Below, piece after piece: positions 34,585 through 56,841 of a stretch of 64,000 nucleotides of DNA (position 1 is its first letter; each line of letters begins with the position of its first letter). The stretch is from an uncultured Gemmatimonadota bacterium (GTDB lineage Bacteria > JAAXHH01): positions 192,001 through 256,000 of the forward strand of contig OX638340.1 of the NCBI GenBank assembly GCA_951812955.1. Direction: 5' to 3'. A program made the position numbers and the translations under genes. The notes under the pieces are model-generated. The model saw nothing but the letters and a program-made list of their open reading frames with translations. It searched no databases and was not told where the DNA came from.

Positions 34585-34908
34585 ACTCTCCCCGGGTCTT
34601 TTGAGAAACAGGGCCGGATGCTGCCGGCAGGCCGGCGCGCCCTGAAATGAATCGTCCGGATTCGGCAAGACCCCATCGCATTTTAATCCACACAGGCTGA
34701 CAAAAAGGATTTCACGTTCGGGAGGAATCCTCCCGGGGGCGTCTTTGCGCGTGAACGGCGCCATATAGTGCCTGAACCGACGGTATTTCGTAGTATATGG
34801 TGTCAACACCTGATGTGTATCAACACACATATAGTCTTTTGCGCACGTAGGAGTTACGAAGATTCCCTTATCCAAAGGTAAAGAAAATCGATGTAAGTCC
34901 ATTTTTTA

Positions 34909-34937
34909 TTGACAATATGGGGGGTGCTATGTAGTAT
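34909..34937 (+). promoter_or_regulatory. Pmra-type promoter TTGACA-N17-TAGTAT for the dcw cluster
   Basis: Perfect -35 TTGACA 34909-34914, 17-nt spacer, TAGTAT 34932-34937, ~120 nt upstream of mraZ. Confidence 0.6.
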
Positions 34938-34938
34938 A

Positions 34939-34963
34939 GTGGGTAGAAGTGGGACGAAGTGGG
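34939..34963 (+). promoter_or_regulatory. Putative MraZ operator: three GTGGG direct repeats at 10-bp spacing
   Basis: GTGGG at 34939-34943, 34949-34953, 34959-34963 (GTGGG-N5-GTGGG-N5-GTGGG) immediately downstream of the -10, overlapping the expected transcription start. Confidence 0.6.
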
Positions 34964-35060
34964 TCCCAGAACATCCTGATTACCAAACACTTGTATAGTA
35001 ATCGTAAATAACTACCTCAGGACAGGGTGTTTACTCCTTTGTGTTACAGGGAGATCGTGA

Positions 35061-35501
35061 ATGGTTAACTTCCTGGGTTCATACACCTACACCGTGGACC
35101 ACAAAGGCCGGGTCAATGTCCCTGTGAAGTTTCGCAAGCACATCCGGACCGACGAGGACGACACGCTGATCATCACGCGGGGACTCGATGGATGTCTTTT
35201 CGTCTATCCAATCGACGAATGGGAACAGATCGACACCCGATTGCGAGAACTGCCCGTCACAAGGCAGAACACGCGGATCTTCATCAGGATGCTCTCGTCG
35301 GAGGCCGTGGCAGTCTCCATGGACAAGCAGGGTCGTATCGCCCTTCCCAGGCAGCTGATCGAACGCGCCGGCATTGAAACGGAAGTACTGATCATCGGAA
35401 CGCTTGACCACTTTGAACTCTGGAGTCCCGGGGAGTATGAGAAAGTAATGAACGAATCGGGACATACATACGAAGAGATCGCGGAGTCCCTGTTCGTTTG
35501 A
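35061..35501 (+). CDS. mraZ: Transcriptional regulator MraZ
   Basis: Two SpoVT/AbrB-like halves with DHKGRVNVP and DKQGRIALP motifs. Confidence 0.92.
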   Translation: MVNFLGSYTYTVDHKGRVNVPVKFRKHIRTDEDDTLIITRGLDGCLFVYPIDEWEQIDTRLRELPVTRQNTRIFIRMLSSEAVAVSMDKQGRIALPRQLIERAGIETEVLIIGTLDHFELWSPGEYEKVMNESGHTYEEIAESLFV

Positions 35502-36511
35502 TGCTTTCCACCCATGCGGCTCCGTTAAATCACGGAATGATCATGGGTCTGGCAGACAAGTACAATCATGTTCCCGTTCTTGCGGGGAAGGTAGCCGAGA
35601 TGCTCGTCTGGAACACTTCCGGCACATATGTAGACGGTACAATCGGCGGAGGCGGTCACGCGCGCGCCATACTGGAGCGGCTTGGCGAATCCGGACGGTT
35701 GATCGGGCTGGACAGGGATTCCGAAGCGGTCGGCGCGGCAGGTGCGCGGCTTGCGCGGGGAAGTACTCCTCGCGTGGAGATCCTGCAACGGGACTATACG
35801 GAGTTGGCGTCCGTGCTGGAAGCGAAACGCATCTCCCGGGTGGACGGACTGATTCTGGACCTTGGCATTTCGTCCTACCAGGTCGATACGCCTGATCGCG
35901 GATTTTCATTCCAGTCCGACGGTCCGCTCGACATGCGCATGGACCGGGGCAAGCCGTTGACCGCGGCTCATATCGTCAACGAAAGTTCCCGGGATGAACT
36001 CGAGCGGATCATACGGGAATACGGCGAGGAACGGCAGGCGCGCGGCGTCGCGAACGCGATCGTCAGAACCCGCGACAGGGCGCCGCTGACTTCCACCGCC
36101 AGGCTGGCTGATACGATCAGGTCCGCGGTCCGCCGCAGATGGGCGGTCAAGTCCTGCGCCCGGGTGTTCCAGGCACTAAGAATCGCCGTCAACCAGGAAC
36201 TGGACAAATTGAAATTGGTTTTGGATACCATGCTTCCCCTCCTGAGCAACCGGGGTCGTTTCGGTATCATATCCTATCATTCACTGGAAGATCGACTGGT
36301 CAAGCGGACATTCGAAACCTGGGCATCGGACTGCATTTGTCCGCCCGGCTTTCCACAGTGCGTCTGCCAGCACAGGCGCGTTGCCGTGCTACATACGAAA
36401 CGGGCCGTCGTGGCCTCCCGTGAAGAAGTCGCGAAAAACCCGCGGGCGCGAAGCGCCAGGTTCCGGATGATTGAACGTTTGCCCGACGATCAACACGCAC
36501 ACTGTAATTAA
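35498..36511 (+). CDS. rsmH: 16S rRNA (cytosine1402-N4)-methyltransferase RsmH/MraW
   Basis: HVPVL...DGTIGGGGHA, LILDLGISSYQVD; start may be at internal ATG 35534/35540. Confidence 0.9.
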   Translation: MMLSTHAAPLNHGMIMGLADKYNHVPVLAGKVAEMLVWNTSGTYVDGTIGGGGHARAILERLGESGRLIGLDRDSEAVGAAGARLARGSTPRVEILQRDYTELASVLEAKRISRVDGLILDLGISSYQVDTPDRGFSFQSDGPLDMRMDRGKPLTAAHIVNESSRDELERIIREYGEERQARGVANAIVRTRDRAPLTSTARLADTIRSAVRRRWAVKSCARVFQALRIAVNQELDKLKLVLDTMLPLLSNRGRFGIISYHSLEDRLVKRTFETWASDCICPPGFPQCVCQHRRVAVLHTKRAVVASREEVAKNPRARSARFRMIERLPDDQHAHCN

Positions 36512-36541
36512 CATCTTTAATTCAGAACGGAGAAGCCCGTC

Positions 36542-36964
36542 ATGAAATCCGCTATCAGATTCCGCAGCGACCACTCGTACATGGGACAATTGATCGGCTG
36601 GATCGGTACGATCGCGCTCGTAACGTCGCTGAGCATGGGTTACATCTGGCACCAGGTGGAAACCACGACGCTGATGCGGGAGATCATCGAACTGAAGGAT
36701 CAGAAAGAAGCCTTGAAAAAGGAAAGCGCCTATTTGCACGTGCGGATCGTTCGGCTCGCGGAACAGCTTCGGAACGAAACAGTGGCCATGAGTCGTTTCG
36801 ATTTGGAACACGCTGCAGTCGGACAGGTTGTGAACATGGATGCGGTAGACACGGCCATGGCTTTGGCCAACACCGAGCCCGATGTAAGGGCGATTGCGGG
36901 TAAGCCGGCGGATGACGCGTTGATCCTTGCCTCGTACCCTGCGGCTCACGTGGATACCCGATGA
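36542..36964 (+). CDS. ftsL: Cell division protein FtsL-like (single TM + coiled coil)
   Basis: Position between rsmH and ftsI; N-terminal TM then coiled-coil heptads (IIELKDQKEALKKESAYLHVRIVRL). Confidence 0.6.
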   Translation: MKSAIRFRSDHSYMGQLIGWIGTIALVTSLSMGYIWHQVETTTLMREIIELKDQKEALKKESAYLHVRIVRLAEQLRNETVAMSRFDLEHAAVGQVVNMDAVDTAMALANTEPDVRAIAGKPADDALILASYPAAHVDTR

Positions 36965-36976
36965 GGGAATACCGTT

Positions 36977-39040
36977 ATGGTCGCGAAATCCTGTATGCGC
37001 AGACTGACCCTCCTGGCCGTAGTCGGAGTGGTACTGTGTGCAGGTCTCGGGATTCGTATCGCGCTAATTCAGATTCGCGACGGCGAGGCCTACAGGCAGC
37101 GGGCGCGTGACCAACAGCACCGGGTGGTCACCATCGACCCCCGCCGGGGCCGTATCTTCGACCGCAACCGTAACACGCTGGCGCTGAGTGTCGAGTTCGA
37201 CTCCTTCGGTATCCAGGATCTCGACCGGGACCGGTACGGCCCCTCCGATATCGGAAACCTGGCCGTTCAGCTTTCCCAGATCACCGGCGAAGATCCCCAG
37301 CATATCATCGACCGGGTTTCCGAGACCTCCGACTTCAGGTATTTGGTCCGCTGGGTGAATCCCGAAACCAGTGAACGGATTAGAAGCCTCTCCACCTATC
37401 CCTTGTTCGAACCCTATATACGCACGCAAAAGGAAGCCAGGCGGGTCTATCCCTATCGGACCGCGGCCGGCCAGATACTGGGTTTCAGCGTAGATGGTTC
37501 CGGTCGGGCCGGGTTCGAAATGGAACACAACCAGCTGTTATCTGGTTTAGAAGGGTACAGCGTGGTGCAGATAGACGCTCAGCGACGGGCGTATTCGTGG
37601 CTTGATGCCTACCAGAATCCGGCGGAGAACGGCGCGGACGTCGTACTGACGATCGATATCGCTGCCCAGGTTGCCGCGGAAGAGGCGCTGGAGGAGGCGA
37701 TAGCGTGGCACGGGGCGCTCGGCGGTATGGTCATCATGATGGATCCGGCGAACGGCGACATACTGGCCATGGCCAGTTCTCCGGACTTCGATCCGAATAC
37801 ACCGGGACGGTTTCCATTCGAAGCCCAGAAGATCAGGCCGGTGGTGGATATCTACGAACCTGGGTCGACTTTCAAGATCGTAGCAGCGACCGCGGCCCTG
37901 GAGACCGGTGCGTTCTCTCTTGAGGACCGGATCGATACCAGTGCAGGCCGGATCGAGGTGGGCGCGCAGACGATATCAGACCACGAGGTCTACGACGAAC
38001 TGAGCGTACGGGAAGTCATCGAGCGGTCCAGCAACGTGGGTACCGTCAAAATCGCCCTGGCCCTCGGTGAAAAGGAGTTTTTCAAATACACCCGGGCCTT
38101 CGGTTTCGGCATGAAAACGGGCGTGGCCCTCCCGGGCGAGGCAAGAGGTATCCTGCATAAACCGGCCGTTTGGTCCATGTCCACGCTTCCCGCCATGGCC
38201 ATCGGCTACGGGGTTTCCGTCACCGGAGTACAACTCGCGACCGCCTATTGCGCCGTAGCCAACGGAGGCCTGCTCCTGCGACCTCGGATAATCAGATCCA
38301 TCCTGAGAAACGACGGTTCCGTGCAGACCGAACCGCGGTTTGTCGTTCGCAGGGTGATGAAAGAGGAGACCGCCGAAGCCTTACTGGGCGTATTCGCCGG
38401 AGTGGTGGACCAGGGTACGGGCACAAAGGCCGCGGTAACGGGTTTCAAGGTCGCGGGAAAGACCGGCACAGCCTGGAAGACCCGTGAGGACGGCAGGGGA
38501 TACACCAGGAATTACCGGTCGTCGTTTGCCGGGATGTTTCCGGCGAATGACCCGGAAATCGTCGTGCTCGTCATGATCGACGAGCCGAAGAAACGCGGCT
38601 TCTATGGCGGATCCGTGGCCGCGCCGGTTTTCAACAAAATCGTTCGCCGCCTCGTCCATCTGCCGGACGGACCCGTTGAGTCGGTTCCCGAATCCGATGA
38701 CGGCCTGCCCCTTCACCTGGCCTCCATCAAGCCTGGTTCGTCCTCGGGCAGCAGACCGCAGGGTTCTGCTACGGCATCGGGAGGACCGATGACTGGAGAC
38801 TTACTGCAGCTTGGCGGCCACTGGGAAATCGAACGTCCCGGTACCGGGGCGGAACAGGCACCGGTGCCGCTTCCGTCGGTGACAGGCATGAGCGTTAGAG
38901 AAGCCGTAAGGACCCTGGCCGAACAGGGTATTGAAGCAACCATAGTCGGTAAGGGCTACGTCCGACGCCAGATTCCTTCACCGGGCCGCATGGTCTATCC
39001 CGGCGATCGATGCCTCATCGAATGTGGTCCCTACAACTAG
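36977..39040 (+). CDS. ftsI: Peptidoglycan D,D-transpeptidase FtsI (class B PBP) with C-terminal PASTA-like domain
   Basis: SxxK GSTFKIV, SxN RSSN, KTG(T) AGKTGTA; C-terminal ~70 aa PVPLPSVTGMSVREAVRTLAEQGIEATIVGKGYVRRQ resembles PASTA. Confidence 0.88.
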   Translation: MVAKSCMRRLTLLAVVGVVLCAGLGIRIALIQIRDGEAYRQRARDQQHRVVTIDPRRGRIFDRNRNTLALSVEFDSFGIQDLDRDRYGPSDIGNLAVQLSQITGEDPQHIIDRVSETSDFRYLVRWVNPETSERIRSLSTYPLFEPYIRTQKEARRVYPYRTAAGQILGFSVDGSGRAGFEMEHNQLLSGLEGYSVVQIDAQRRAYSWLDAYQNPAENGADVVLTIDIAAQVAAEEALEEAIAWHGALGGMVIMMDPANGDILAMASSPDFDPNTPGRFPFEAQKIRPVVDIYEPGSTFKIVAATAALETGAFSLEDRIDTSAGRIEVGAQTISDHEVYDELSVREVIERSSNVGTVKIALALGEKEFFKYTRAFGFGMKTGVALPGEARGILHKPAVWSMSTLPAMAIGYGVSVTGVQLATAYCAVANGGLLLRPRIIRSILRNDGSVQTEPRFVVRRVMKEETAEALLGVFAGVVDQGTGTKAAVTGFKVAGKTGTAWKTREDGRGYTRNYRSSFAGMFPANDPEIVVLVMIDEPKKRGFYGGSVAAPVFNKIVRRLVHLPDGPVESVPESDDGLPLHLASIKPGSSSGSRPQGSATASGGPMTGDLLQLGGHWEIERPGTGAEQAPVPLPSVTGMSVREAVRTLAEQGIEATIVGKGYVRRQIPSPGRMVYPGDRCLIECGPYN

Positions 39041-39090
39041 CCGATTCATCGTTCATGAGGGTGAGGACGACGGCATAGAGGGTCAAGGCG

Positions 39091-40635
39091 TTGAAACAGC
39101 TTTCGAAATTGCTGGCCGCGTTACCTCAAAAAAAAGTCATCAGCCGGCTGAATGCCTCGAACCGGGCGGACCGGGCGGACCGGGCAGTCCAGGCGGACTA
39201 TGCGGACCATGCGGACCATGCGGACCAGGAGATTGGAACCATAGTCCATGACTCGAGGTCCGTAGAGCCAGGCGATGTTTTTGTCGCGCTCCGCGAGCCT
39301 TCGGGCCGCGACGGCCGCAGGTACGCCCGCGACGCGGTTGCACGGGGCGCTTCGGTAGTGGTACAGGAAAGCGAGGAGGGCCTGGATGACGCGATCGTGA
39401 TAAGCGTTCCGGACACTTCCAGGGCTCTGGGCTTGATGGCCGCGGCGTACTACGGTCAGCCGGCGACCGACCTTTGTCTGATCGGTATTACGGGGACCAA
39501 CGGAAAGACGACCGTGTCATTGCTGGTCGAGGCTATCCTTCGGGAATGTGGCTGGGCCGTGGGCGGGATCGGCACGCTGGGCAGCCGGTTCATGGGCAAT
39601 GTGCTCGACTGGAAACTGGGCCACACCACGCCCTATCCGATGGAGCTGCACGGCACCCTGAGGAAGATCCGGGACCGGGGAGGCGAATGCGTCGTCATGG
39701 AAGTATCCTCTCACAGCCTGGTCTGGCAACGCCTGTCCGGCCTGCGATTCACCACGGGCGTCTTTACGAATCTCTCCAGGGAACACCTGGACGACCACAA
39801 GACCTTCGACGCTTACAAGGAAGCGAAGATGGTGCTTTTCTCGAAATACCTCGAGGAGAAAGGCAACGCCGTCCTGAACATGGACGATCCGGCCTATGTC
39901 CATTTCAAGGACGCATCGCGCGCACAGGTGCGATCATACGGACTGGACAAGAAGGCTGACGTCCGCAGGGCGGGTCCAATAGGATACTATGCTGACCGGA
40001 CCGTCATGAAAGTGCAGATTCAATCCGGTCCCCCTTTCAACGTGACCTTGCCTCTCCTGGGTCGTTTCAACGCGTACAACGCCCTGGCAGCCATATCCGT
40101 GGGGCTGGGATTCGGCATCGACTGTGAACTGATGAGCCGGGCCATGTCACGAGTCAGGGTACCCGGCCGGCTTGAGCGCGTCGAGGCTGGACAGCCTTTC
40201 AACGTGCTCGTGGATTTCGCCCATACGCCCGACGCACTCGGCGCCGTACTGTCCGCCTGCCGGGAATGGACCCGTGGAAGCCTGACCGTCGTATTCGGTT
40301 GCGGCGGGGACCGTGATCCCGGCAAGCGGCCGCTGATGGCCCGTGCGGCGTCCACCCACGCCGACGTAGTCATCGTGACGACCGACAACCCGAGAACGGA
40401 ACCGCCCGACCGGATCATAAGAGATATCGAGCCGGGTCTCCTGCCCCACGTCCGGTCCCATATAGTCCAGGACCGCGGCGAAGCGATCCATAAGGCCCTC
40501 AGCGATGCCGGCGAAGGAGACACCGTGCTGATCGCCGGAAGAGGAGACACGGCCTACCAGATCGTTGGCGAATCGCAAATCGAGTTCGACGACCGGTTCA
40601 AGGCCAGGGAATGTCTCGAGGCGCACTATGGATAA
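39091..40635 (+). CDS. murE: UDP-MurNAc-L-Ala-D-Glu:meso-DAP ligase MurE (with ~25-aa repeat-rich N-terminal extension)
   Basis: GITGTNGKTT P-loop, DNPR and meso-DAP-type C-terminal motifs. Confidence 0.9.
   Translation: MKQLSKLLAALPQKKVISRLNASNRADRADRAVQADYADHADHADQEIGTIVHDSRSVEPGDVFVALREPSGRDGRRYARDAVARGASVVVQESEEGLDDAIVISVPDTSRALGLMAAAYYGQPATDLCLIGITGTNGKTTVSLLVEAILRECGWAVGGIGTLGSRFMGNVLDWKLGHTTPYPMELHGTLRKIRDRGGECVVMEVSSHSLVWQRLSGLRFTTGVFTNLSREHLDDHKTFDAYKEAKMVLFSKYLEEKGNAVLNMDDPAYVHFKDASRAQVRSYGLDKKADVRRAGPIGYYADRTVMKVQIQSGPPFNVTLPLLGRFNAYNALAAISVGLGFGIDCELMSRAMSRVRVPGRLERVEAGQPFNVLVDFAHTPDALGAVLSACREWTRGSLTVVFGCGGDRDPGKRPLMARAASTHADVVIVTTDNPRTEPPDRIIRDIEPGLLPHVRSHIVQDRGEAIHKALSDAGEGDTVLIAGRGDTAYQIVGESQIEFDDRFKARECLEAHYG
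39160..39227 (+). repeat. In-frame 9-nt tandem repeats in murE 5' region (ccgggcgga x3-like then gcggac(c/t)at x4) encoding RADRADRAVQADYADHADHAD
   Basis: aaccgggcggaccgggcggaccgggcag...gcggactatgcggaccatgcggaccatgcggaccag; preceded by an A8 homopolymer at 39129-39136. Confidence 0.85.
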
Positions 40636-42049
40636 CCGCAATGGGTCGGCGGCGCCCACGTTGCTGGAAATAGCCGATATCATGGGCGGGAGACTGCATG
40701 TATCCATCCCCGCGCTTGGTCACAGACGGATCACGGGCGTTTGTTCCGATACGCGGCGTATCGCGGAGGGCAACCTGTTCGTCGCGATTGCAGGTGAACG
40801 GTACGACGGTCACGATTTCGTGCCTGAAGCCATGCGCTCGGGAGCGTGTGCGTCGCTGGTTGCGGCCGATTGGCTCGCGGGTCGGCCGGACCGGGAGACT
40901 CCGGATGACGCGCGGATCGTCGTGCCGGAAGTACTTCCGGCCCTGCAGGCATTCGCCGGTTGGCACCGAAGACGATTCGATCTGCCGGTAATCGCGGTTA
41001 CGGGTTCCAGCGGGAAGACCACCACGAAGAACATGATGGCCGCCGTGCTGGGAGAGCGCTACAGGGTTTTCAAAACACCGGGGAACCTGAATAGCCAGCT
41101 GGGAGTCTCCGAATCGCTGTTCTCGCTGCACGAAGGCCACGGCGCGGCGGTACTTGAACTGGGTATGAACCGGGCAGGTGAACTGACCCGGCTGTCCCGA
41201 ATGACCTGTCCATCCGTTGGCGTGATTACCAATGTGGGGCCCGCGCATATCGAGTTTTTCGAATCGATCGAAGGAATCGCCCGGGCCAAGGGCGAAATTC
41301 TCGACAATCTGCCAGGGGCGGGAAGCGCGGTGCTAAACGCCGACGACCCCCTCGTCATGAAGCAGGCCGTTCGCAGTCCGGCGCGAGTCGTTACGTTTGG
41401 ACGCAGCGAGGGAGCCGACGTAAGGCTGGCAAGCGCAACGACCGCACTGACCGGATCGACTTTCGCCTTGTCGGATGGCGCATCCTTTCGAATAAACCTG
41501 TTGGGGGAACACCAGGTCATGAATGCAATGGCCGCCGTGGCGGTGGGCAGGATTTCGGGAATCGACGACCAGGACATCGCTCGCGCGTTGCGAAACTTGG
41601 ATCCCACGCCCATGCGCATGGAATACAGGAAGGTGGGCGCCGTGCACCTGATCGACGACACATACAATGCCAATCCGTCGTCGATGAAGGCGGCCCTGGA
41701 CACGCTGGCGACTGCCGGAGGCCGTAAACTGGTCGTCCTCGGGGATATGCTGGAACTGGGCGAACTGGGCATGGCGGCGCACAGGGAAATCGGAAAACGC
41801 GCCGCGGATGTGGCGGAACGGATCGTCACGGTGGGAGAACTGGCCCGCGAAATCGCCGGAGCCGCGATGCATGCGGGGATGCCGGCGTCGCGCGTCTCGT
41901 CCTGCCTTTCCAACGACGAGGCGGTCGCTGAGGTAATGGCGGGAATCGAAGCCGTCGACGTCATACTCGTCAAGGGATCGCGCGGCATGCGGATGGAAAC
42001 GATCGTTGAATCCCTGGAACTAGCACTGGGCCATACCGAAACGGAGTGA
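40628..42049 (+). CDS. murF: UDP-MurNAc-tripeptide:D-Ala-D-Ala ligase MurF
   Basis: GSSGKTTTK P-loop; ATG 40628 overlaps murE stop; Mur ligase middle/C domains. Confidence 0.9.
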   Translation: MDNRNGSAAPTLLEIADIMGGRLHVSIPALGHRRITGVCSDTRRIAEGNLFVAIAGERYDGHDFVPEAMRSGACASLVAADWLAGRPDRETPDDARIVVPEVLPALQAFAGWHRRRFDLPVIAVTGSSGKTTTKNMMAAVLGERYRVFKTPGNLNSQLGVSESLFSLHEGHGAAVLELGMNRAGELTRLSRMTCPSVGVITNVGPAHIEFFESIEGIARAKGEILDNLPGAGSAVLNADDPLVMKQAVRSPARVVTFGRSEGADVRLASATTALTGSTFALSDGASFRINLLGEHQVMNAMAAVAVGRISGIDDQDIARALRNLDPTPMRMEYRKVGAVHLIDDTYNANPSSMKAALDTLATAGGRKLVVLGDMLELGELGMAAHREIGKRAADVAERIVTVGELAREIAGAAMHAGMPASRVSSCLSNDEAVAEVMAGIEAVDVILVKGSRGMRMETIVESLELALGHTETE

Positions 42050-42053
42050 TTCC

Positions 42054-43196
42054 GTGTTACATCAGCGAATCGATCTTCCACTGCTGGTTTCATCCCTGCT
42101 CCTCCTGGGCGTGGGATCGGTCATGATTTACAGCGCGAGTTCAGCCGTTGCCGAAGAGATGTTTTCCGGCGACAGTGGTTTCTTCGTCAAACGCTACCTG
42201 GTCAGGTTGATTCTCGGAATCGTCATCCTGGTCCTGTTCGCCAGCCTGAATTACCAGAAACTCGGGAAGTGGTCCCCATTACTGGTTGCCGTCGGCATGG
42301 TGTTTCTCGTGCTCCTCTTTGTTCCCGGTATCGGCCTGACCATCCGGGGCGCGACCCGCACCTTGAGCATGTTCTCCACGACGATTCAGCCCGCGGAAGG
42401 GATCAAGGTCGCCCTGGTCATATACCTGGCCTACTGGCTGGACAGGCGCCAGAACGTCATGGACCGTTTCTTCATCGGATTTCTGCCCGGAATAGCGGTG
42501 GTCGCGGCAGCCTGCCTGCTGATTGTCCTGCAGCCGGATTATGGTACCGCGATCGTGCTTGCCGCAACCTCGTTCGCGATGCTCTACATCGGCCGCGCGC
42601 GGATGCTGCACCTGGCAAGCACCGTGGGAATCATGTTGCCGGTCCTTTTCTACAGACTGTATTCGTCGGCTCACAGCCGGCAGCGTCTCATGGCTTATTT
42701 CGATCGGCTTTTCGGCAATTCCGTCGATCAGTCCGTCAATCTGCAAGGTGCGGACTACCAACTGCAACAAGCGCTGATCAGTCTGGGTACAGGCGGCGTA
42801 TTTGGAAACGGTCTGGGACAAAGCCGTCAGAAGTTTCTGTTCCTTCCCGATCCCCACACTGACTTCGTGTTCGCGGTGATTGGCGAAGAACTCGGTTTTC
42901 TGGGGTCGATGGCGGTGCTGGGCCTCTTTGTCGTATTCGCCTGGAGGGGTTTCAGGGTCGCCCGCATGGCACCTGACACCTTCGGGTTTTTCCTGGCGTC
43001 CGGGCTTACTATTCTTATCACACTGCACGTGCTGGTGAACATCGGTGTGGTGACGGGCATGCTCCCCACCACGGGGCTTCCGCTACCCTTCCTGAGCTAT
43101 GGCGGGTCCTGGCTGCTTTTCTGCATGATGAGCATCGGGATACTGCTGAACATTTCCAGAATGACATACCGGTGCCAGAGACTGAAATATGACTGA
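42054..43196 (+). CDS. ftsW: SEDS-family peptidoglycan glycosyltransferase FtsW
   Basis: LPDPHTDFVFAVIGEELGF, LPLPFLSYGGSWLL SEDS motifs; directly follows murF (no mraY/murD between). Confidence 0.85.
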   Translation: MLHQRIDLPLLVSSLLLLGVGSVMIYSASSAVAEEMFSGDSGFFVKRYLVRLILGIVILVLFASLNYQKLGKWSPLLVAVGMVFLVLLFVPGIGLTIRGATRTLSMFSTTIQPAEGIKVALVIYLAYWLDRRQNVMDRFFIGFLPGIAVVAAACLLIVLQPDYGTAIVLAATSFAMLYIGRARMLHLASTVGIMLPVLFYRLYSSAHSRQRLMAYFDRLFGNSVDQSVNLQGADYQLQQALISLGTGGVFGNGLGQSRQKFLFLPDPHTDFVFAVIGEELGFLGSMAVLGLFVVFAWRGFRVARMAPDTFGFFLASGLTILITLHVLVNIGVVTGMLPTTGLPLPFLSYGGSWLLFCMMSIGILLNISRMTYRCQRLKYD

Positions 43197-44607
43197 TCGG
43201 CAAAATACGGACATTGCATGCCGTCACGCGCATTTCATCGGCATAGGCGGAATCGGAATGAGCGGTCTGGCTGAACTGATGCTCGAATTTGGTTACGAAG
43301 TGAGCGGATCGGACCTGCGGCGAACACAGCTGACGGACCGGCTCAGCGGTCTCGGAGCGTCCGTCTTCCACAGCCACGACCCGGGCAACGCGGCGGGTGC
43401 GGACCTGATCGTGTACTCTTCCGCAATTCCGGAGGACAATCCCGAACTCGAAGCGGCCCGTAGGCATGGCGTACGTTTGGTCCGCCGCGCCGAACTGCTC
43501 GGTATACTGATGCGCGGGGCACGAAGTATCGCCGTGGCGGGCGCTCACGGCAAGACGTCCACGTCGGCGATGATCGTAAACGTACTGGCCGCCGCGGGCC
43601 TGGATCCGACCGCCGCCATAGGCGGGATCATGACGGAGAACGGATCCAACGTCCGGCACGGCAGCGGATCGTGGATGGTCGCGGAAGCCGATGAATATGA
43701 TCGTTCGTTCCATGCGCTGGCTCCGACTACGGCAGTAATCACATCGGTGGACGCAGACCACCTGGAATACTACGGATCGCAGGAAGCCATAGATGCAGCC
43801 TTCACTACTTTCGCCCATCTCGTACCCGAGGACAGGCCGTTGTTCGTGTGTGCCGACGACCCGGGCATCCGCAGGATCAGTCCCGCGCTGCGCCGACGGC
43901 TGGTGACCTACGGCCTTTCCGGTCACGCCTGCATCCGGGCAGACCGGGTGGCGACCGAAGGCTGGAGCATTTCCGCCGAAGTATTCGTGCGGGACGTTCC
44001 GGCCGGCCGGCTGGTTTTGCCTCAGCCCGGCGAGTGCAACCTGGTCAATGCCCTGGCGGCCATCAGTGTGGCCGACTACCTCGAAATACCCGTCGAGCGG
44101 ACCCTGGCGGCCCTGGCGGATTACCGGGGACTGAGGAGACGTTTCGAAGTACTCGGAAGGATTCAAGGTGTGGAGGTAGTGGACGACTATGCCCACCATC
44201 CCGTCGAAATCGAGGCGGCGTTGCTCGCCCTGTCAAACGCGGGAGCCCGGCGCATGTTCGTCATATTCCAACCCCACCTCTTCAGCCGAACGCAGCATCT
44301 GTGCCGCGAATTCGGGCGCGTACTCGGGCGGTTTCCCGCATATCGGAAGATCGTTACGGACGTGTACCCCTCCAGGGAAACGCCGCGGGAGGGGGTTACG
44401 GGTGAGTTGATCGTCAGGGCGTCGAGCGCATTCGGAGGAGGCGTCGCGTACATGCCGGACAAGAACCGCATCGCGACCACCCTGGTGGACGATCTCGAGA
44501 AAGGGGACATGGTGCTGACGCTCGGCGCGGGGGACATCGACGAAGTAGGACGGCAGGTTTGCGAACTACTTAGGAAACGCGGGGTCAGGTCCCATGCATG
44601 TATATGA
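43189..44607 (+). CDS. murC: UDP-N-acetylmuramate:L-alanine ligase MurC
   Basis: HFIGIGGIGMSGLAE N-terminal Rossmann, GAHGKTSTSAM P-loop; directly follows ftsW (no murG between). Confidence 0.9.
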   Translation: MTDRQNTDIACRHAHFIGIGGIGMSGLAELMLEFGYEVSGSDLRRTQLTDRLSGLGASVFHSHDPGNAAGADLIVYSSAIPEDNPELEAARRHGVRLVRRAELLGILMRGARSIAVAGAHGKTSTSAMIVNVLAAAGLDPTAAIGGIMTENGSNVRHGSGSWMVAEADEYDRSFHALAPTTAVITSVDADHLEYYGSQEAIDAAFTTFAHLVPEDRPLFVCADDPGIRRISPALRRRLVTYGLSGHACIRADRVATEGWSISAEVFVRDVPAGRLVLPQPGECNLVNALAAISVADYLEIPVERTLAALADYRGLRRRFEVLGRIQGVEVVDDYAHHPVEIEAALLALSNAGARRMFVIFQPHLFSRTQHLCREFGRVLGRFPAYRKIVTDVYPSRETPREGVTGELIVRASSAFGGGVAYMPDKNRIATTLVDDLEKGDMVLTLGAGDIDEVGRQVCELLRKRGVRSHACI

Positions 44608-45520
44608 AATGCTCAGTGGGTCGATCGCTTCCGAACGGCTGCGGTGCGACGAGGGCCTTGATCGGCATTCTACTTACCGGGTCGGAGGGCCGGCGGACGT
44701 GATGTGCCTGCCTCGAACCCGATCGGAACTGCTGGATGTCGTCACCGCTGCAAGCGTGCGCGGGATACCCTGGCTGGTGGTGGGAAACGGGAGCAATATC
44801 CTCTTCTCGGATGACGGATTCCGCGGTCTGGTGATCAAGATAAGAGGCGCGGTCCCGGTGGAGGGGACGCTGTGGCAATTGGCGCAGGAAGGTGATTTCA
44901 TCCGGGCGGGCGCGGGCGTCAGCCTGCCTCGACTCGCCAGGTCGGCGGCGGCCGCGGGACTGAGCGGACTGGAGTTCTGCACCGGGATACCCGGCGTGGT
45001 TGGCGGATCCATCCGGGGCAACGCCGGCGCTCACGGGAGTGATCTGGGCGCTGTAGTGGAGTCTGTGGAAATGATTCGGCCATCCGGTGACATCGTGACG
45101 ATCAGGGCTTCGGAGGCCGGGTTTTCCTATCGGGAAAGTGAAATTGAGCCGGACAGCATCGTGACCGGGGCGGTGTTCAGGCTGACGCCGGATGAACCGG
45201 AGAACGTGCAAGAACGCATAAGGGTCTTCACCGAATACAGAAAGCGCACGCAGCCGTCCTCCGATCAGAGTGCCGGGTGCATGTTTAAAAACCCGGTGGG
45301 CGACAGTGCCGGAAGGCTGATCGACGCGGCCGGGTGCAAAGGACTTCAGGTCGGCGGATCGAGGGTGTCCGAAATCCACGGTAATTTCGTAATCAACCTG
45401 GGTGGTGCAACGGCGTCGGACGCGTTGCGGTTGATCGACCTGGTTCGCGAACGGGTCTTCGAGCGAACCGGCGTAGCCCTCGAACTCGAGGTGCGCGTGA
45501 TGAAATCGGGCGTGGTATGA
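44594..45520 (+). CDS. murB: UDP-N-acetylenolpyruvoylglucosamine reductase MurB
   Basis: FAD-binding VGGPADV...LVVGNGSNILFSD, C-terminal MurB domain GNFVINLGGATASD. Confidence 0.88.
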   Translation: MHVYEMLSGSIASERLRCDEGLDRHSTYRVGGPADVMCLPRTRSELLDVVTAASVRGIPWLVVGNGSNILFSDDGFRGLVIKIRGAVPVEGTLWQLAQEGDFIRAGAGVSLPRLARSAAAAGLSGLEFCTGIPGVVGGSIRGNAGAHGSDLGAVVESVEMIRPSGDIVTIRASEAGFSYRESEIEPDSIVTGAVFRLTPDEPENVQERIRVFTEYRKRTQPSSDQSAGCMFKNPVGDSAGRLIDAAGCKGLQVGGSRVSEIHGNFVINLGGATASDALRLIDLVRERVFERTGVALELEVRVMKSGVV

Positions 45521-46359
45521 ATTCGAACAGGATGCGTTTCACATTCCGTTTGATGACCGGACTTGCGATTGTCCTGCTCGCCTCAGGTACGACGGCCGGA
45601 CTGGTCATGGGAGGCCTGGCGCTGTCCAGGTGGACTGAGAACTCGCCGGTTTTCAATCTGGACGCCATCGTCGTCGAGGGGAACAGGATCGCTGGCAAGG
45701 AGGACATCATCCGGGTTTCCGGCCTCGAAATGGGCAAGAACATCTGGTCGGCCGACCTCGAGGAGACCGGACGGCGACTCATGCTCGACACGCGGTTCGA
45801 TCGGGTCGCGCTGAGCAGGAGGTTACCCGGTACCGTCGTCGTTCGGGTGAAGGAACTGCAGCCCATCGCCATTGTACAGCTGGATCGCCTCTACGGAGTC
45901 TCCGAACGCGCCGAGCTGATCCCGCTTTCACCGGGAAACGGGTTGCCGGACCTTCCCGTGATTACCATCGACGCTTCAGGTTTCCGGCCGGAGTCAGGCG
46001 CCGCGGAATCGCGGGACCTTCATTTCGAAACGCTCAGGGAAGCCATGCTGGTCGATCCCGAGATGGGCCGCGCCCTCTACCTCATGCGGGTGCTCAGAGC
46101 GATGTCTCCGGGGATGTACGACGAGTTATCCGAGATTCACATGTCCAGACCGAATGACCCGATCGCCTACATGGTGGAAGGCGGATTGGCCATACGGTTC
46201 GGAACGGGACACTACCCCCGGAAGATCGAGATGCTCAGACGAACTGTGGAGCGGTTGGAAGCCGACGCCATCAGGACCCGGTTGATCGATCTGAGGTTCA
46301 AGGACCAGGTTATCGTCCGCCCGGTTGTATCCAGCCGGTCCCTGGACAGGCGTTCGTAG
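45517..46359 (+). CDS. ftsQ: Cell division protein FtsQ/DivIB (POTRA domain)
   Basis: N-terminal TM, POTRA segment IVVEGNRIAGKEDIIRVSGLEMGKNIW; ATGA overlap with murB; no ddl between murB and ftsQ. Confidence 0.8.
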   Translation: MNSNRMRFTFRLMTGLAIVLLASGTTAGLVMGGLALSRWTENSPVFNLDAIVVEGNRIAGKEDIIRVSGLEMGKNIWSADLEETGRRLMLDTRFDRVALSRRLPGTVVVRVKELQPIAIVQLDRLYGVSERAELIPLSPGNGLPDLPVITIDASGFRPESGAAESRDLHFETLREAMLVDPEMGRALYLMRVLRAMSPGMYDELSEIHMSRPNDPIAYMVEGGLAIRFGTGHYPRKIEMLRRTVERLEADAIRTRLIDLRFKDQVIVRPVVSSRSLDRRS

Positions 46360-46377
46360 CGGTAAAAGGAGTTTCGC

Positions 46378-47598
46378 ATGGCCCGTGAATGTATAGCTGC
46401 ACTCGACCTGGGCACGACCAAAACGGTCGTGTTGATCGGCGAGATGACTGACGCCGGCCTCCGGATCCTGGGCGAGGGTACGTGCCGGTCCCAGGGCCTC
46501 CGGCGAGGCGTCCCGGTCAATATGGACGAAGCTGCCCGTTCGATCGCGGAGACGATTCAGGTCGCGGAACAGGCGGCCGAAGCCAGGATAAGCGAGGTCT
46601 ATGTCGGGTGTTCCGGCGATCACATCGAAAGTGTCAACAGCAGAGGCGTCGTGGCCATTTCGTCCGACGGGGGACGGGGCGTGACGCGTAAGGACGTTGC
46701 TCGCGCCTTCGATTCCGCGACGGCCCTGAGGATTCCCATGGACCGCCAGGTCATCCATGTGCTCGCACAGGACTATATCGTGGACGACCAGTGCGGTATC
46801 CGCGACCCGTGCGGCATGTCCGGCGTCCGGCTTGAAGTGCTGGTGCACATCGTGACCGGGGCGATCACCTCGTTGCGGAATGTACGCAATTGCATCATGC
46901 AGTCCGGAATTCAAGTCCGGGAAATCGTCCTCGATTCGCTCGCCGCGAGCCAGGCGGTGCTCACATCCGACGAAAAAGAGCTGGGTGTCGTTCTCCTCGA
47001 CCTCGGCGGGGGCACCACGAACATCGCGCTGTTCCAAGACGGCAGCATCCGGCATTCGTCGGTTATTCCCGCCGGAGGAATCAACCTTACGAACGATATC
47101 GCGATCGGTCTCCGCACCCCGCATGAAGATGCCGAACGAATAAAGCGGCACTACGCGAGCGCGGTATATGTCCGCTCGGAAAGGGACAACATGATTGAAG
47201 TACCCGGGGTCGGCGGACGCGAGTCGCGTATGGTGACGCGGGAGGAATTGGCGTTCGTGGTCGGCCCACGGATCAAGGAGCTTCTGGTCCTCGCTCGGGA
47301 GACGATCAGGAACAGTGGATTCGAACACCTGGTCCGCACCGGTATCGTTATCACAGGGGGCGGTGCGCTGATGCCGGGTATTGCGAAACTGACGGAACAG
47401 GTCTTCGGCATGTCCGCGAAAATCGGTGCGCCGGAGGAAGTTCACGGCCTGGCCGATGATGGGAACGCCCCCCTGTACGCAACCGGTGTAGGCTTGTTGC
47501 GCCACGCAGCGGACAGCTCGTCAGGAAAAAAGTGGCACCATGATACGGAAGGAGGATGGCTGGATCGTGTGAGAAGCCGGATCGTAGCCATGTTGTAG
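46378..47598 (+). CDS. ftsA: Cell division protein FtsA
   Basis: Actin-fold motifs IAALDLGTTK, VLLDLGGGTTNIALF; position before ftsZ. Confidence 0.9.
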   Translation: MARECIAALDLGTTKTVVLIGEMTDAGLRILGEGTCRSQGLRRGVPVNMDEAARSIAETIQVAEQAAEARISEVYVGCSGDHIESVNSRGVVAISSDGGRGVTRKDVARAFDSATALRIPMDRQVIHVLAQDYIVDDQCGIRDPCGMSGVRLEVLVHIVTGAITSLRNVRNCIMQSGIQVREIVLDSLAASQAVLTSDEKELGVVLLDLGGGTTNIALFQDGSIRHSSVIPAGGINLTNDIAIGLRTPHEDAERIKRHYASAVYVRSERDNMIEVPGVGGRESRMVTREELAFVVGPRIKELLVLARETIRNSGFEHLVRTGIVITGGGALMPGIAKLTEQVFGMSAKIGAPEEVHGLADDGNAPLYATGVGLLRHAADSSSGKKWHHDTEGGWLDRVRSRIVAML

Positions 47599-47666
47599 CA
47601 CACACCATGCGCTATCGTACGGATTCGGCGGTTTGCTAACTCAAACCCCACAGAAGGAGGCAGGAA

Positions 47667-48839
47667 ATGTCTACTTTCGACTTTGATGCGGAACCGGGAT
47701 TGTTTGCCCGCATGAAAATAATCGGCGTAGGCGGCGCAGGAAAGAACGCCGTCAACCACATGGTTGAAATCGGCGTCCCGGGCGTTGATTTTCTAGTCGC
47801 CAACACCGACGCGCAGGACCTGGCGGGTTCCAATGTGAAGTACAAGATACAGCTGGGACAGGAAACTACCCGTGGACTCGGCGCCGGCGCTAATCCCGAC
47901 GTGGGCCGCAAAGCCGCGGAGGAAAGCCGGGACGAAATCGCGGAACACCTGACCGACATCGACATGGTGTTCATCACGGCGGGTATGGGGGGAGGCACGG
48001 GAAGCGGCGCCGCGCCGGTGATTGCCCAGATTGCGAAGGAACTGGGTGTGCTGGCCGTCGGCGTCGTGACCAAGCCGTTCGCGTTCGAGGGACCCAAGCG
48101 TGCGGCGAACGCCGAGACCGGGCTCTCAGCTTTGAAGGAACATGTAGATACGGTGGTCATCATACCAAACCAGAAACTGAAGGAGGCCGTGAGCCGCAAC
48201 ACCACATTCAAAGACGCGCTCAAGGTGGCCGACGAAGTCCTGTTGCAGGCCACGCGCGGCATTTCGGACCTGGTTACACTGCCCGGATTGATCAATGTCG
48301 ATTTCGCCGATATCAGGACGACCATGGAGAACAAGGGCGAAGCCCTGATGGGAACCGGCGAAGCCGATGGCGACAAGCGTGCGCTGGAAGCGGCGGAACG
48401 GGCCATGCGGCACCCGTTGCTGGCGGACATGGACATCGACGGGGCCAAGGATATTCTGCTCAATATATCGGGCGGCCAGGACATGACCCTGTTCGAAGTG
48501 GAAGAGGTGATGACCACGGTTCAGGCGGCCGCGGGACATACCAACATCATCATGGGTACGGTCCTCGACGAAAGCCTCGACGGCAAGGTCCGCGTAACGG
48601 TGATCGCCACGGGGCTGGACCAGTCGATGGCTGCCCCTGACGATATGTTGACGCGTAACATCCTGAAGTTTCAGCCGGACCGCCCTAACGAACTGGAAAC
48701 GCCGGCCTTTCAGCGTGTCAAGCGCAACGGGTTCGATACGGAAGAAGTGACCGTCGGCGACCCTTCTGACGACGCGGTCGACAACAACGGGCTGGACGTG
48801 CCGACCTACATGCGTCGCAGGCGGGCTTTCGGTTCGTAG
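47667..48839 (+). CDS. ftsZ: Cell division GTPase FtsZ
   Basis: Tubulin signature GGGTGSGAAPV, IGVGGAGKNAV; GAAGGAGG RBS. Confidence 0.95.
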   Translation: MSTFDFDAEPGLFARMKIIGVGGAGKNAVNHMVEIGVPGVDFLVANTDAQDLAGSNVKYKIQLGQETTRGLGAGANPDVGRKAAEESRDEIAEHLTDIDMVFITAGMGGGTGSGAAPVIAQIAKELGVLAVGVVTKPFAFEGPKRAANAETGLSALKEHVDTVVIIPNQKLKEAVSRNTTFKDALKVADEVLLQATRGISDLVTLPGLINVDFADIRTTMENKGEALMGTGEADGDKRALEAAERAMRHPLLADMDIDGAKDILLNISGGQDMTLFEVEEVMTTVQAAAGHTNIIMGTVLDESLDGKVRVTVIATGLDQSMAAPDDMLTRNILKFQPDRPNELETPAFQRVKRNGFDTEEVTVGDPSDDAVDNNGLDVPTYMRRRRAFGS

Positions 48840-52633: not shown

Positions 52634-53668
52634 ATGCGTTTTATCCTGCCGGACTTCTTTTCTAATGATATCGGCATCGATCTGGGTACGGCCAATACGC
52701 TCGTATATGTCCGTGGCAGAGGCATTGTGATCAACGAGCCATCCGTGGTGGCCGTCAATACCAAGTCCGGGAAAGTCGTCGCCGTCGGTGCCGAGGCTAA
52801 AGTCATGCTCGGAAGGGAGCCGCCCGATCTCAAGGCGCACCGGCCGTTGCGCGATGGCGTGATTGCCGACTTCGAGTATACGGAAGCGATGATTCGATAC
52901 TTCATCCGCAAGGTCCTCAAGAATTCATTCTTCATTCGGCCACGCGTCGTGGCATGTATTCCCTCGGGAGTGACCGACGTTGAAATGAGGGCGGTCCGGG
53001 ATTCGGCGGAGCGAGCGGGCGCCAAGGAAGTGATGTTGATATCCGAGCCCATGGCGGCCGCTATCGGTTGTTCGTTGCCCGTGGATGAACCGGTGGGCAG
53101 CATGATCATCGATATCGGCGGCGGGACGTCGGAGATCGCCGTGATCTCCCTTGGCGGCATCGTGACGGCAAAGTCGGTACGCATCGGCGGCGATGAAATG
53201 GACGAGGCAATCATCAACCACATGAAGAACGACTGCAACCTTCAGATCGGCTACAATATGGCCGAACAGATCAAGTGGAATCTCGGGTCGGCCTATCCGG
53301 TGTTCGACAAGGAACTGGATATGACGGTAAAGGGGCTCGATCTGATCGACAGGATACCACGTTCTGTAGTTGTCGATTCCCTGGCGATTCGCAGGGTACT
53401 TTCCCAGCCGCTCGACGGGGTGATCATGGCAGTGCGGCAAACCCTGGAATTGACACCGGCGGAACTGGCGGCCGATATTATCGATCGCGGTATCATCATA
53501 AGCGGAGGCGGGTCCCGGCTGCCCGGCCTGGACAGGCAGATCACGAAGGAGACCAAGCTGCCGGTAAGGCTCGATGAGGAGCCTATGACGTCCGTTGTTC
53601 GGGGAGCGGGAAAGATCATAGAGAACTTTGCCGCTTACGAGACTATGCTGAGCGTCCTGAAGGACTAG
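52634..53668 (+). CDS. mreB: Rod shape-determining protein MreB
   Basis: IGIDLGTANTLVYV, IIDIGGGTSEIAVIS actin-like motifs. Confidence 0.95.
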   Translation: MRFILPDFFSNDIGIDLGTANTLVYVRGRGIVINEPSVVAVNTKSGKVVAVGAEAKVMLGREPPDLKAHRPLRDGVIADFEYTEAMIRYFIRKVLKNSFFIRPRVVACIPSGVTDVEMRAVRDSAERAGAKEVMLISEPMAAAIGCSLPVDEPVGSMIIDIGGGTSEIAVISLGGIVTAKSVRIGGDEMDEAIINHMKNDCNLQIGYNMAEQIKWNLGSAYPVFDKELDMTVKGLDLIDRIPRSVVVDSLAIRRVLSQPLDGVIMAVRQTLELTPAELAADIIDRGIIISGGGSRLPGLDRQITKETKLPVRLDEEPMTSVVRGAGKIIENFAAYETMLSVLKD

Positions 53669-53669
53669 C

Positions 53670-54485
53670 ATGTTCCGGTTCTTTTACGTTCTGTATCACC
53701 AACGCCAGTACACAGCTTTCGCGCTCGCCATGGTCATCTCGATCCTGCTTCTGACGGCGTCCCCGCAGCGGCAGATCGGTGTCATGCGGATCGTCTGGTT
53801 GACTGTGCTGACGCCTTTTCAGGAAGCGTTCGCCTTCATTCCGTCGTATTTCAACCTCAAATCCGAAAACCAGCTGCTGCGACAGAAACTCGTCCAGATG
53901 CAATTGCAGACCGCCGATCTCGAGGAACGAAGATTTGAAAACCAGCGGCTGCGCGGGCTCCTCAGTCTGAAGGACAGAAAGAAGTATACCTATGTGCCCG
54001 CCGAAGTCGTCGGCTGGAATACCGATCAGAGGCTGAACACCATTATCATCGATGTCGGTCGTTTCGATCAGATCCGCAAGTACATGGCCGTAGTGATGGA
54101 AGACGGTGTCCTGGGTAGAATCATCGAAGTCGGCCTGACTTCGTCCTACGTGCAATTGCTTTCCGACAGAAACTGCCGTATCAGCGGCCTGGTCCAGCGA
54201 AGCCGGGAACAGGGAATCATCCGCTACCAGAATGAAGCGTTGTATATGCAGTTGCCATTACGGGCAGACGTCCGTCTAGGCGACCGCGTGGTGACATCCG
54301 GCCTGGGGGAGACCTTTCCTTCGGGATTGCCCGTTGGCAGTATAAGCCGGATCGCACTCGGAAGCCGGAACCTTTTCAAGCAGGTAACGATCACTCCCGC
54401 GGTGGAACTGAATCGTCTGGAGGAGGTGTTTGTGATCGCGGGTGAAGAAACACCTGCCGCGGCCGATTCGCTCCAGGTCGAGTAA
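53670..54485 (+). CDS. mreC: Rod shape-determining protein MreC
   Basis: N-terminal TM, coiled coil (NQLLRQKLVQMQLQTADLEERRFENQRL), beta-rich C-terminal domain; position. Confidence 0.8.
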   Translation: MFRFFYVLYHQRQYTAFALAMVISILLLTASPQRQIGVMRIVWLTVLTPFQEAFAFIPSYFNLKSENQLLRQKLVQMQLQTADLEERRFENQRLRGLLSLKDRKKYTYVPAEVVGWNTDQRLNTIIIDVGRFDQIRKYMAVVMEDGVLGRIIEVGLTSSYVQLLSDRNCRISGLVQRSREQGIIRYQNEALYMQLPLRADVRLGDRVVTSGLGETFPSGLPVGSISRIALGSRNLFKQVTITPAVELNRLEEVFVIAGEETPAAADSLQVE

Positions 54486-54526
54486 TCTCGGGTTCGACGA
54501 GCCGGTTTTTATGATCCAGCTATTCC

Positions 54527-55027
54527 ATGCACTTAAAACACGCTATCCTACTGTTCCTGGCATTTGTAATCGACAGTACCTGGGGACACGAAATCGCCAT
54601 ACGGACTATCAGGCCGGATTTCGTACTGATGATCCTGATCTTTGGCGCGATGGGATCGGGCGCCTTCTGGGGGACCATCCTGGGCTTCAGCGTAGGGCTC
54701 ATGGAGGATTTCAACAGCACGCCTGTGAACCTGGGACTCAATGCCATGTGCAATACGCTGATCGCATACGGCGTGGGAATTGCCGGAAAAACGCTCTACA
54801 GGGACAGTCTCTCTACCCTGCTGCTCACGCTGCTTGCCGCCAGCCTGGTCCACGCCGTCATTTACTGGCTGGTATTCACCCGGTTCCAACTGGCTGAATC
54901 TGTATTCATGCTGGCAACGGTCTCATTGCCCACGATGCTTTACACCGTCTCCGTAGCCCTGTTGCTCGTGCTCGGATTGACCTATCGACAGGGACAGATC
55001 AATGTCCGGTGGCTTTTCCCAGAATGA
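54527..55027 (+). CDS. mreD: Rod shape-determining protein MreD
   Basis: 166-aa polytopic membrane protein following mreC. Confidence 0.7.
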   Translation: MHLKHAILLFLAFVIDSTWGHEIAIRTIRPDFVLMILIFGAMGSGAFWGTILGFSVGLMEDFNSTPVNLGLNAMCNTLIAYGVGIAGKTLYRDSLSTLLLTLLAASLVHAVIYWLVFTRFQLAESVFMLATVSLPTMLYTVSVALLLVLGLTYRQGQINVRWLFPE

Positions 55028-56822: not shown

Positions 56823-56841
56823 GAAATACGCCTGAAATCCC

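Follow-up and report, generated by a model that had tools for sequence, protein, structure and literature searches.

A putative MraZ operator directly downstream of the predicted mraZ promoter in the candidate phylum Latescibacterota

The mraZ locus and the dcw cluster

The DNA that was analyzed, called the window in the following, is a stretch of 64,000 nt with a G+C content of about 60%. It contains mraZ at the head of a long series of dcw genes. Upstream of mraZ the same strand carries prmC and proC, followed by a gap of 476 nt, in which the predicted promoter and three GTGGG boxes are located. The features are listed below; "clade" denotes the ten sequences that are introduced in the section on conservation.

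34881-34887, + strand: A-rich block AAGAAAA, inside GGTAAAGAAAA (34877-34887); its columns are invariant in the seven-sequence alignment A2 (60-95% MraZ identity)
34902-34908, + strand: T-tract directly 5' of the -35 hexamer; a T-rich run is kept in all clade members
34909-34914, + strand: -35 hexamer TTGACA (sequence and promoter scan); invariant in 10/10 clade sequences
34932-34937, + strand: -10 hexamer TAGTAT; TAnnnT, 17 nt after the -35 hexamer, in 10/10 clade sequences
34939-34943, + strand: putative MraZ box 1, GTGGG, one base (A34938) after the -10 hexamer; box and 1-nt gap invariant in 10/10 clade sequences
34949-34953, + strand: putative MraZ box 2, GTGGG, preceded by AA (sequence and clade alignment)
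34959-34963, + strand: putative MraZ box 3, GTGGG, preceded by AA (sequence and clade alignment); GTGGT in L005
34944-35060, + strand: predicted 5' leader of about 117 nt, its start placed from the -10 hexamer
34983-34993, + strand: conserved leader motif CCAAACACTTG (alignment A2); CAAA..TT invariant across the clade
35049-35053, + strand: Shine-Dalgarno sequence GGGAG in the leader
35061-35501, + strand: mraZ, 146 aa, presumed cognate repressor; PF02381 with 108.7 bits, TIGR00242 with 136.2 bits (cut-off 98.35)
35498-48839, + strand: presumed co-transcribed dcw genes rsmH, ftsL, ftsI, murE, murF, ftsW, murC, murB, an ORF in the ftsQ position, ftsA and ftsZ (NCBIfam/Pfam and gene packing)

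The MraZ protein of the window was aligned over its full length to the MraZ chains of Mycoplasma genitalium in cryo-EM and crystal entries (PDB 9qlr, 9qlg and 9sx6) with E values of about 1e-20. In this alignment D13, K15, R17, D88 and R92 of the window protein are opposite D11, K13, R15, D82 and R86 of the M. genitalium protein. The motifs VDHKGR (with D13, K15 and R17) and MDKQGR (with D88 and R92) align with DSKGR and DGAGR of E. coli MraZ. Both DxxxR motifs and the base-contacting Lys and Arg residues are, therefore, present in the window protein.

All dcw genes are encoded on the + strand, where they overlap or follow each other closely. The ftsI-type penicillin-binding protein (PBP) of the cluster is PASTA-bearing. 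From 39091 to 48839 the order is murE, murF, ftsW, murC, murB, one ORF without a family, ftsA and ftsZ, and for this ORF, which occupies the ftsQ position between murB and ftsA, no assignment was obtained with NCBIfam or Pfam. The genes from 35498 to 48839 are presumed to share one transcript from the mraZ promoter (Pmra), with gene packing as the guide to its extent. A tblastn search of the whole 64 kb with the E. coli proteins revealed no orthologues of MraY, MurD, MurG or DdlB, and the only matches to MurD were the paralogues murC and murF. Thus, these usually clustered genes must be located elsewhere in the genome. On the same strand, an elongasome-type cluster (52634-58059) follows a few kb after the dcw cluster; it consists of mreB (52634-53668, NCBIfam), the gene of a further class B PBP (about 55002-56822) and a further gene of the FtsW/RodA family (about 56842-58059), the latter two found with tblastn.

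The predicted core promoter

The two hexamers upstream of mraZ are separated by a spacer of 17 nt (34915-34931), the letters of which differ between clade lineages, and the end of the -10 hexamer is 123 nt away from the mraZ start codon (ATG at 35061). In the promoter scan the pair had 10/12 matches, with a perfect -35 hexamer and a -10 hexamer of 4/6, measured against a consensus that may not be the one of the host sigma factor. Seven promoter-like sites with at least 10/12 matches were found in the window, all of them on the + strand, and five of the seven are situated in gaps between ORFs just 5' of + strand ORFs. Because such sites favor the gaps ahead of + strand genes, promoters of the type TTGACA-17-TAnnnT are plausibly used by the organism. 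After the site at 34909, no further + strand site with at least 10/12 matches was found until 48903, where the second one precedes valS.

The block AAGAAAA (34881-34887) lies about 57-63 nt 5' of the predicted transcription start; the block may act like an UP element or be bound by another factor. Still further upstream, about 100 nt 5' of the -35 hexamer, a direct repeat of GTGTCAACAC (34800) and GTATCAACAC (34817) was noticed within an imperfect palindrome (34792-34833), which is kept only in the relatives with 92-95% MraZ identity. The upstream regions of L081 and L085 contain a different palindrome, (C)CACAATATATTGTGG. These palindromes, in the window as well as in L081 and L085, may be operators for other regulators.

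Three GTGGG boxes around the predicted transcription start

The three boxes are on the strand of mraZ and are phased by 10 bp, with the spacers TAGAA between boxes 1 and 2 and ACGAA between boxes 2 and 3. From the start of box 1 to the ATG of mraZ the distance is 122 nt. Box 1 follows TAGTAT after a gap of 1 nt and occupies the discriminator, just 5' of the start site that is predicted at about 34944-34946. The pattern GTGGG-N5-GTGGG-N5-GTGGG occurs a single time in the 64 kb, with both strands counted and even if one mismatch is allowed. The number expected in the window was 0.03 on average for dinucleotide shuffles, and 5.7e-4 exact copies were expected analytically from the base composition. 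A second site with two boxes, GTGGG-N5-GTGGG, was also not present within the 64-kb window; thus, the search for additional sites of a regulon, which the first-pass annotation had suggested, yielded no other two-box or three-box site over this length.

That annotation had described TTGACA, a 17-nt spacer and TAGTAT about 120 nt upstream of mraZ, and three GTGGG boxes with a periodicity of 10 bp directly after the -10 hexamer. Both descriptions agree with the sequence (34909-34937 for the promoter, box starts at 34939, 34949 and 34959). It had also called the promoter a consensus promoter, which is right for the perfect -35 hexamer but not for the -10 hexamer; with 4/6 matches in the latter and 10/12 in total, the label was mildly overstated.

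The predicted 5' leader of mraZ

The leader and the 476-nt intergenic region had no match in Rfam at E values up to 1. The leader did not have a conserved or unusually stable fold (z = -0.61), and the fold of the alignment contained five pairs, none of which covaried. On the basis of these results, a structured RNA or riboswitch in the intergenic region or leader was rejected.

Three further candidates in the leader were rejected. First, a second promoter around CTTGTATAGTAAT has no acceptable -35 hexamer, and its candidate -10 hexamer is not kept in L081, L085 and L005. Second, CCAAACACTTG was considered as an inverted MraZ box (CACTT is the reverse complement of AAGTG), but the GTG core is lost in L081 and L005. 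Third, the inverted repeat GATTAC...GTAATC (34978-35003) is not kept in L001 and L004. According to the clade alignment, CCAAACACTTG (34983-34993) is part of neither a covarying RNA helix nor a conserved promoter.

Conservation within the clade

The organism is represented solely by metagenome assemblies; the nearest genome records, with 92-95% MraZ identity, are metagenome-assembled and mostly labelled Candidatus Latescibacterota. The clade set consisted of ten sequences with MraZ identities of 60-95%, i.e., the window, its close relatives L001-L004, the 60% identical Latescibacterota genome L005, and the metagenomic contigs L081, L083, L085 and L087 (the contigs L081-L087 are 62-68% identical). 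All ten have the architecture TTGACA-N17-TAnnnT-N1-GTGGG-N5-GTGGG-N5-GTGG(G/T). The 17-nt spacer and both 5-nt spacers vary between lineages, but 14 box positions are invariant, and the rest of the intergenic region of about 480 nt cannot be aligned beyond the close relatives. Promoter and boxes are thus invariant while spacers and surroundings have diverged, as would be expected for a functional core promoter to which an operator is fused. The gene order prmC-proC-gap-mraZ-rsmH-ftsL is kept in L081-L083 and in L085.

In a lineage with 62% MraZ identity (L087, 338-502; L086, 74-238), the module of Pmra and three boxes is located 303 nt 5' of mraZ. A conserved acidic ORF of 54 aa lies between the module and mraZ in both contigs, and, therefore, the operon seems to begin with an extra small gene there.

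Conservation across phyla

The survey across phyla comprised 80 mraZ loci from contigs of one genome per species, and the 300 nt upstream of mraZ were inspected on the coding strand. The loci belonged to Latescibacterota, Ignavibacteria, Kryptonia, Zixibacteria, Bacteroidota and many Bacillota. The pattern GTGG-N6-GTGG-N6-GTGG was present in 65/80 of them, and it was absent from 501,740 nt of control sequence taken from the same loci. Most of the other 15 loci had two exact boxes and a degenerate third one. Wherever a good pair of -35 and -10 hexamers could be found, box 1 started 0-17 nt after the -10 hexamer. The consensus of the repeat unit in the surveyed loci was AAAGTGG(T/G)G, which agrees with the published MraZ consensus of Mollicutes, (AAAGTGKN3)3 (PMC5282649, citing Fisunov 2016).

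Three or more GTG(G/T) boxes with a spacing of 10 bp have been described as conserved in phylogenetically diverse bacteria (PMC12957436, 10.1101/2022.02.09.479790, PMC7761207). According to the literature, there are usually three of them, located at or after the -10 hexamer and overlapping the transcription start, and MraZ represses through them. A literature search for MraZ in Latescibacterota returned unrelated matches only.

Specificity of the box pattern

The bare box pattern was also used for a metagenome-wide scan, and 59/80 sampled loci turned out to be G-rich tandem repeats. Seven of the 21 sites that were not repetitive were located less than 160 nt 5' of mraZ. The bare pattern thus stems mostly from unrelated G-rich repeats; the boxes alone are no proof of MraZ binding, and as a metagenome probe the pattern was discarded because it is non-specific without context. 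It is the context of promoter and mraZ that makes the window site specific.

Several individual sites were also noted. L158 (685-709) and L156 (minus strand) contain non-repetitive triple boxes with A-rich spacers and no mraZ within 1 kb downstream, and the ORFs neighboring the L158 site look phage-like or have no recognised function. These triple boxes may have arisen by chance or may be MraZ sites outside of dcw clusters. Three GTGGGG boxes also occur on the minus strand of the metagenomic contig L123 (position 2594 of its reverse complement). About 35 nt beyond them lies a strong hairpin, rich in G+C and with a T-tail, and the contig ends before any gene. The hairpin recalls the terminator-containing UpsM leader 5' of mraZ in Rhodobacteraceae (PMC5089854).

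Comparison with known MraZ operators

The box geometry has a close counterpart in E. coli. Pmra of this species (mraZ1p) has three direct repeats for MraZ, according to Eraso et al. 2014 (J Bacteriol 196:2053) as cited in PMC8475190 and PMC7761207. In the genome of strain MG1655 the arrangement reads TTGACA-18-TAAACT-N7-GTGGG-N5-GTGGG-N5-GTGGG; here box 1 is located 44 nt upstream of mraZ. The box pattern is thus identical to that of the window, and it is likewise located downstream of TTGACA/TAnnnT, on the coding strand and ahead of mraZ-rsmH-ftsL-ftsI. The two sites differ in that the first box follows the -10 hexamer after 7 nt in E. coli versus 1 nt in the window, and in that only about 20 nt separate the last E. 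coli box from the ATG, which results in a short leader in contrast to the predicted leader of about 117 nt. The two MraZ proteins are 30% identical, and the DxxGR motifs of the E. coli protein are kept in the window MraZ.

In Bacillus subtilis the MraZ binding repeats are three GTGG[A/T]G repeats, which are needed for repression by MraZ and which form the only triple repeat of this kind in the genome (White et al., 10.1101/2022.02.09.479790). Three boxes with a GTGG core, the phasing by 10 bp and the location at the mra promoter are shared with the window, and the Bacillota loci of the survey have the same layout. In contrast to the window, where it is G, the fifth base of the box is usually T or A, and Bacillota often have a fourth, out-of-phase box downstream.

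The operator of M. genitalium contains four boxes, and cryo-EM structures of its complexes are available (PDB 9qlr, 9qlg and 9sx6; PMC12957436). The transcription start lies inside box 1, the residues K13, R15 and R86 (together with D11 and D82) read the TGT/G core in successive major grooves, and the number and spacing of the boxes matter for binding as well as for repression (PMC12957436). The window shares the GTG(G/T) cores 10 bp apart and the A-rich 5' flank, and all five core-reading residues have counterparts in its MraZ. The differences are the four boxes and the consensus AAAGTGT of M. genitalium, versus three GTGGG boxes in the window, where the A-rich flank of boxes 2 and 3 is reduced to AA.

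The last example is PmraBc of Burkholderia cenocepacia, which has four repeats of 7 nt downstream of the -10 hexamer, overlapping the mapped transcription start, and a 5' UTR of about 100 nt; in EMSA, MraZ shifts the fragment of the promoter that has the repeats (PMC7761207). The repeats are 3' of the -10 hexamer as in the window, and the length of the UTR is close to the 117 nt predicted for the window, in contrast to the number of repeats (four versus three).

Proposed function of the boxes and alternative explanations

The observed architecture, its conservation in the clade, the identity of the mraZ gene and the retained DNA-contacting residues point to one explanation, i.e., the three boxes are very probably an autoregulatory operator of MraZ that overlies the core promoter Pmra and would serve the repression of mraZ and the dcw genes. 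Binding, its cooperativity, the start site and repression are proposed here by analogy to the work on E. coli, B. subtilis, B. cenocepacia and Mycoplasma. With the housekeeping sigma factor, RNA polymerase would recognise TTGACA-17-TAGTAT and begin transcription at about 34944-34946. The three GTGGG boxes, one helical turn apart, would present one face of the DNA from about -5, in the discriminator, to about +20. Adjacent subunits of the MraZ oligomer would each insert a beta-sheet "cradle" at a GTG(G/T) core, one major groove after the other, with K15, R17 and R92 as the predicted cradle residues of the window MraZ, braced by D13 and D88. Cooperative binding of MraZ would cover DNA that the polymerase needs for the open complex or for promoter escape, and the outcome would be that MraZ represses its own gene together with the dcw genes that follow. 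The first-pass annotation had proposed conserved MraZ autorepression in a distant lineage; the gene, the boxes, the footprint of conservation in the clade and the residues support this proposal in silico, but it is not a discovery, because such autorepression has already been published.

The direction of the regulation could be different. MraZ of M. gallisepticum was reported to be an activator upon overexpression, according to the citation of this work in PMC12957436, and thus the sign of regulation should not be taken for granted. It is nevertheless highly unlikely that the site is a genuine MraZ site at which MraZ activates or has a dual effect. The boxes begin 1 nt after the -10 hexamer and reach to about +20, which is where steric repressors typically bind and which is unfavorable for activation. 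The same placement goes along with repression in M. genitalium (PMC12957436, PMC8475190), in B. subtilis (10.1101/2022.02.09.479790) and, as related in these three sources, also in E. coli. In B. cenocepacia, which has the same placement, the shift of the promoter fragment by MraZ was the readout, and repression was not read there (PMC7761207).

Still less probable is an explanation in which the repeat is bound by another protein or has survived as a relic without function, with the real dcw promoter at another place. The bare box pattern is indeed found in many unrelated repeats, and the leader holds a second conserved motif, CCAAACACTTG. However, the 14 box positions and the -35 and -10 hexamers are invariant in relatives with 60-95% MraZ identity while the spacers change, and boxes precede mraZ across phyla, with no occurrence in 0.5 Mb of control sequence. 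In addition, no other + strand site with at least 10/12 matches is present between 34909 and 48903, and no acceptable pair of -35 and -10 hexamers is conserved in the leader.

The least probable explanation is that the G-tracts act mainly through a G-quadruplex in the non-template strand, which would modulate transcription independently of MraZ: a G-quadruplex in a G-rich region just downstream of the S. aureus mraZ promoter has been characterised biophysically and proposed to be conserved (PMC11796246), and GGGGGG at 34919-34924 could form a four-tract motif together with the GGG runs of the three boxes, but the region has no canonical motif with loops of up to 7 nt and reaches four tracts only with a first loop of 14-16 nt, the fourth tract is not conserved (the spacer of L005 has only GG), many Bacillota loci have boxes of the form GTGGT or GTGGA without GGG, and the invariant feature is GTGG in strict 10-bp phasing with an A-rich 5' flank, i.e., the recognition unit of MraZ, beyond mere runs of G.

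Significance of the putative operator for Latescibacterota

The window site has every sequence-level feature of the MraZ operator family. Its mildly distinctive features are limited to the fusion of box 1 to the -10 hexamer with a gap of 1 nt, the long leader, and the two extra conserved blocks, namely AAGAAAA at about -60 and CCAAACACTTG in the leader of about 117 nt. Since within the clade the operator is fixed at an invariant distance of 1 nt from the core promoter, box 1 (GTGGG) is itself the G+C-rich discriminator. Together with the two blocks, this could point to a second input, which might come from an additional DNA- or RNA-binding regulator, or from growth-rate control through the discriminator. 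That the dcw promoter of Latescibacterota integrates such a second input with the occupancy by MraZ, and thus goes beyond the one-repressor switch of E. coli, is, however, unlikely.

Taken together, the site belongs to a well-described operator type of very wide distribution, of which it is an ordinary example, and it is new for its phylum only. The literature already describes the boxes across diverse bacteria, and, thus, the site introduces neither new biology nor a new question. It extends the MraZ dcw module to the uncultured candidate phylum Latescibacterota, in which it is conserved base for base, and it adds a further example to the evidence that the MraZ operator is nearly universal. 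In the annotation of these genomes, the site can serve to mark where the dcw transcription unit probably starts.
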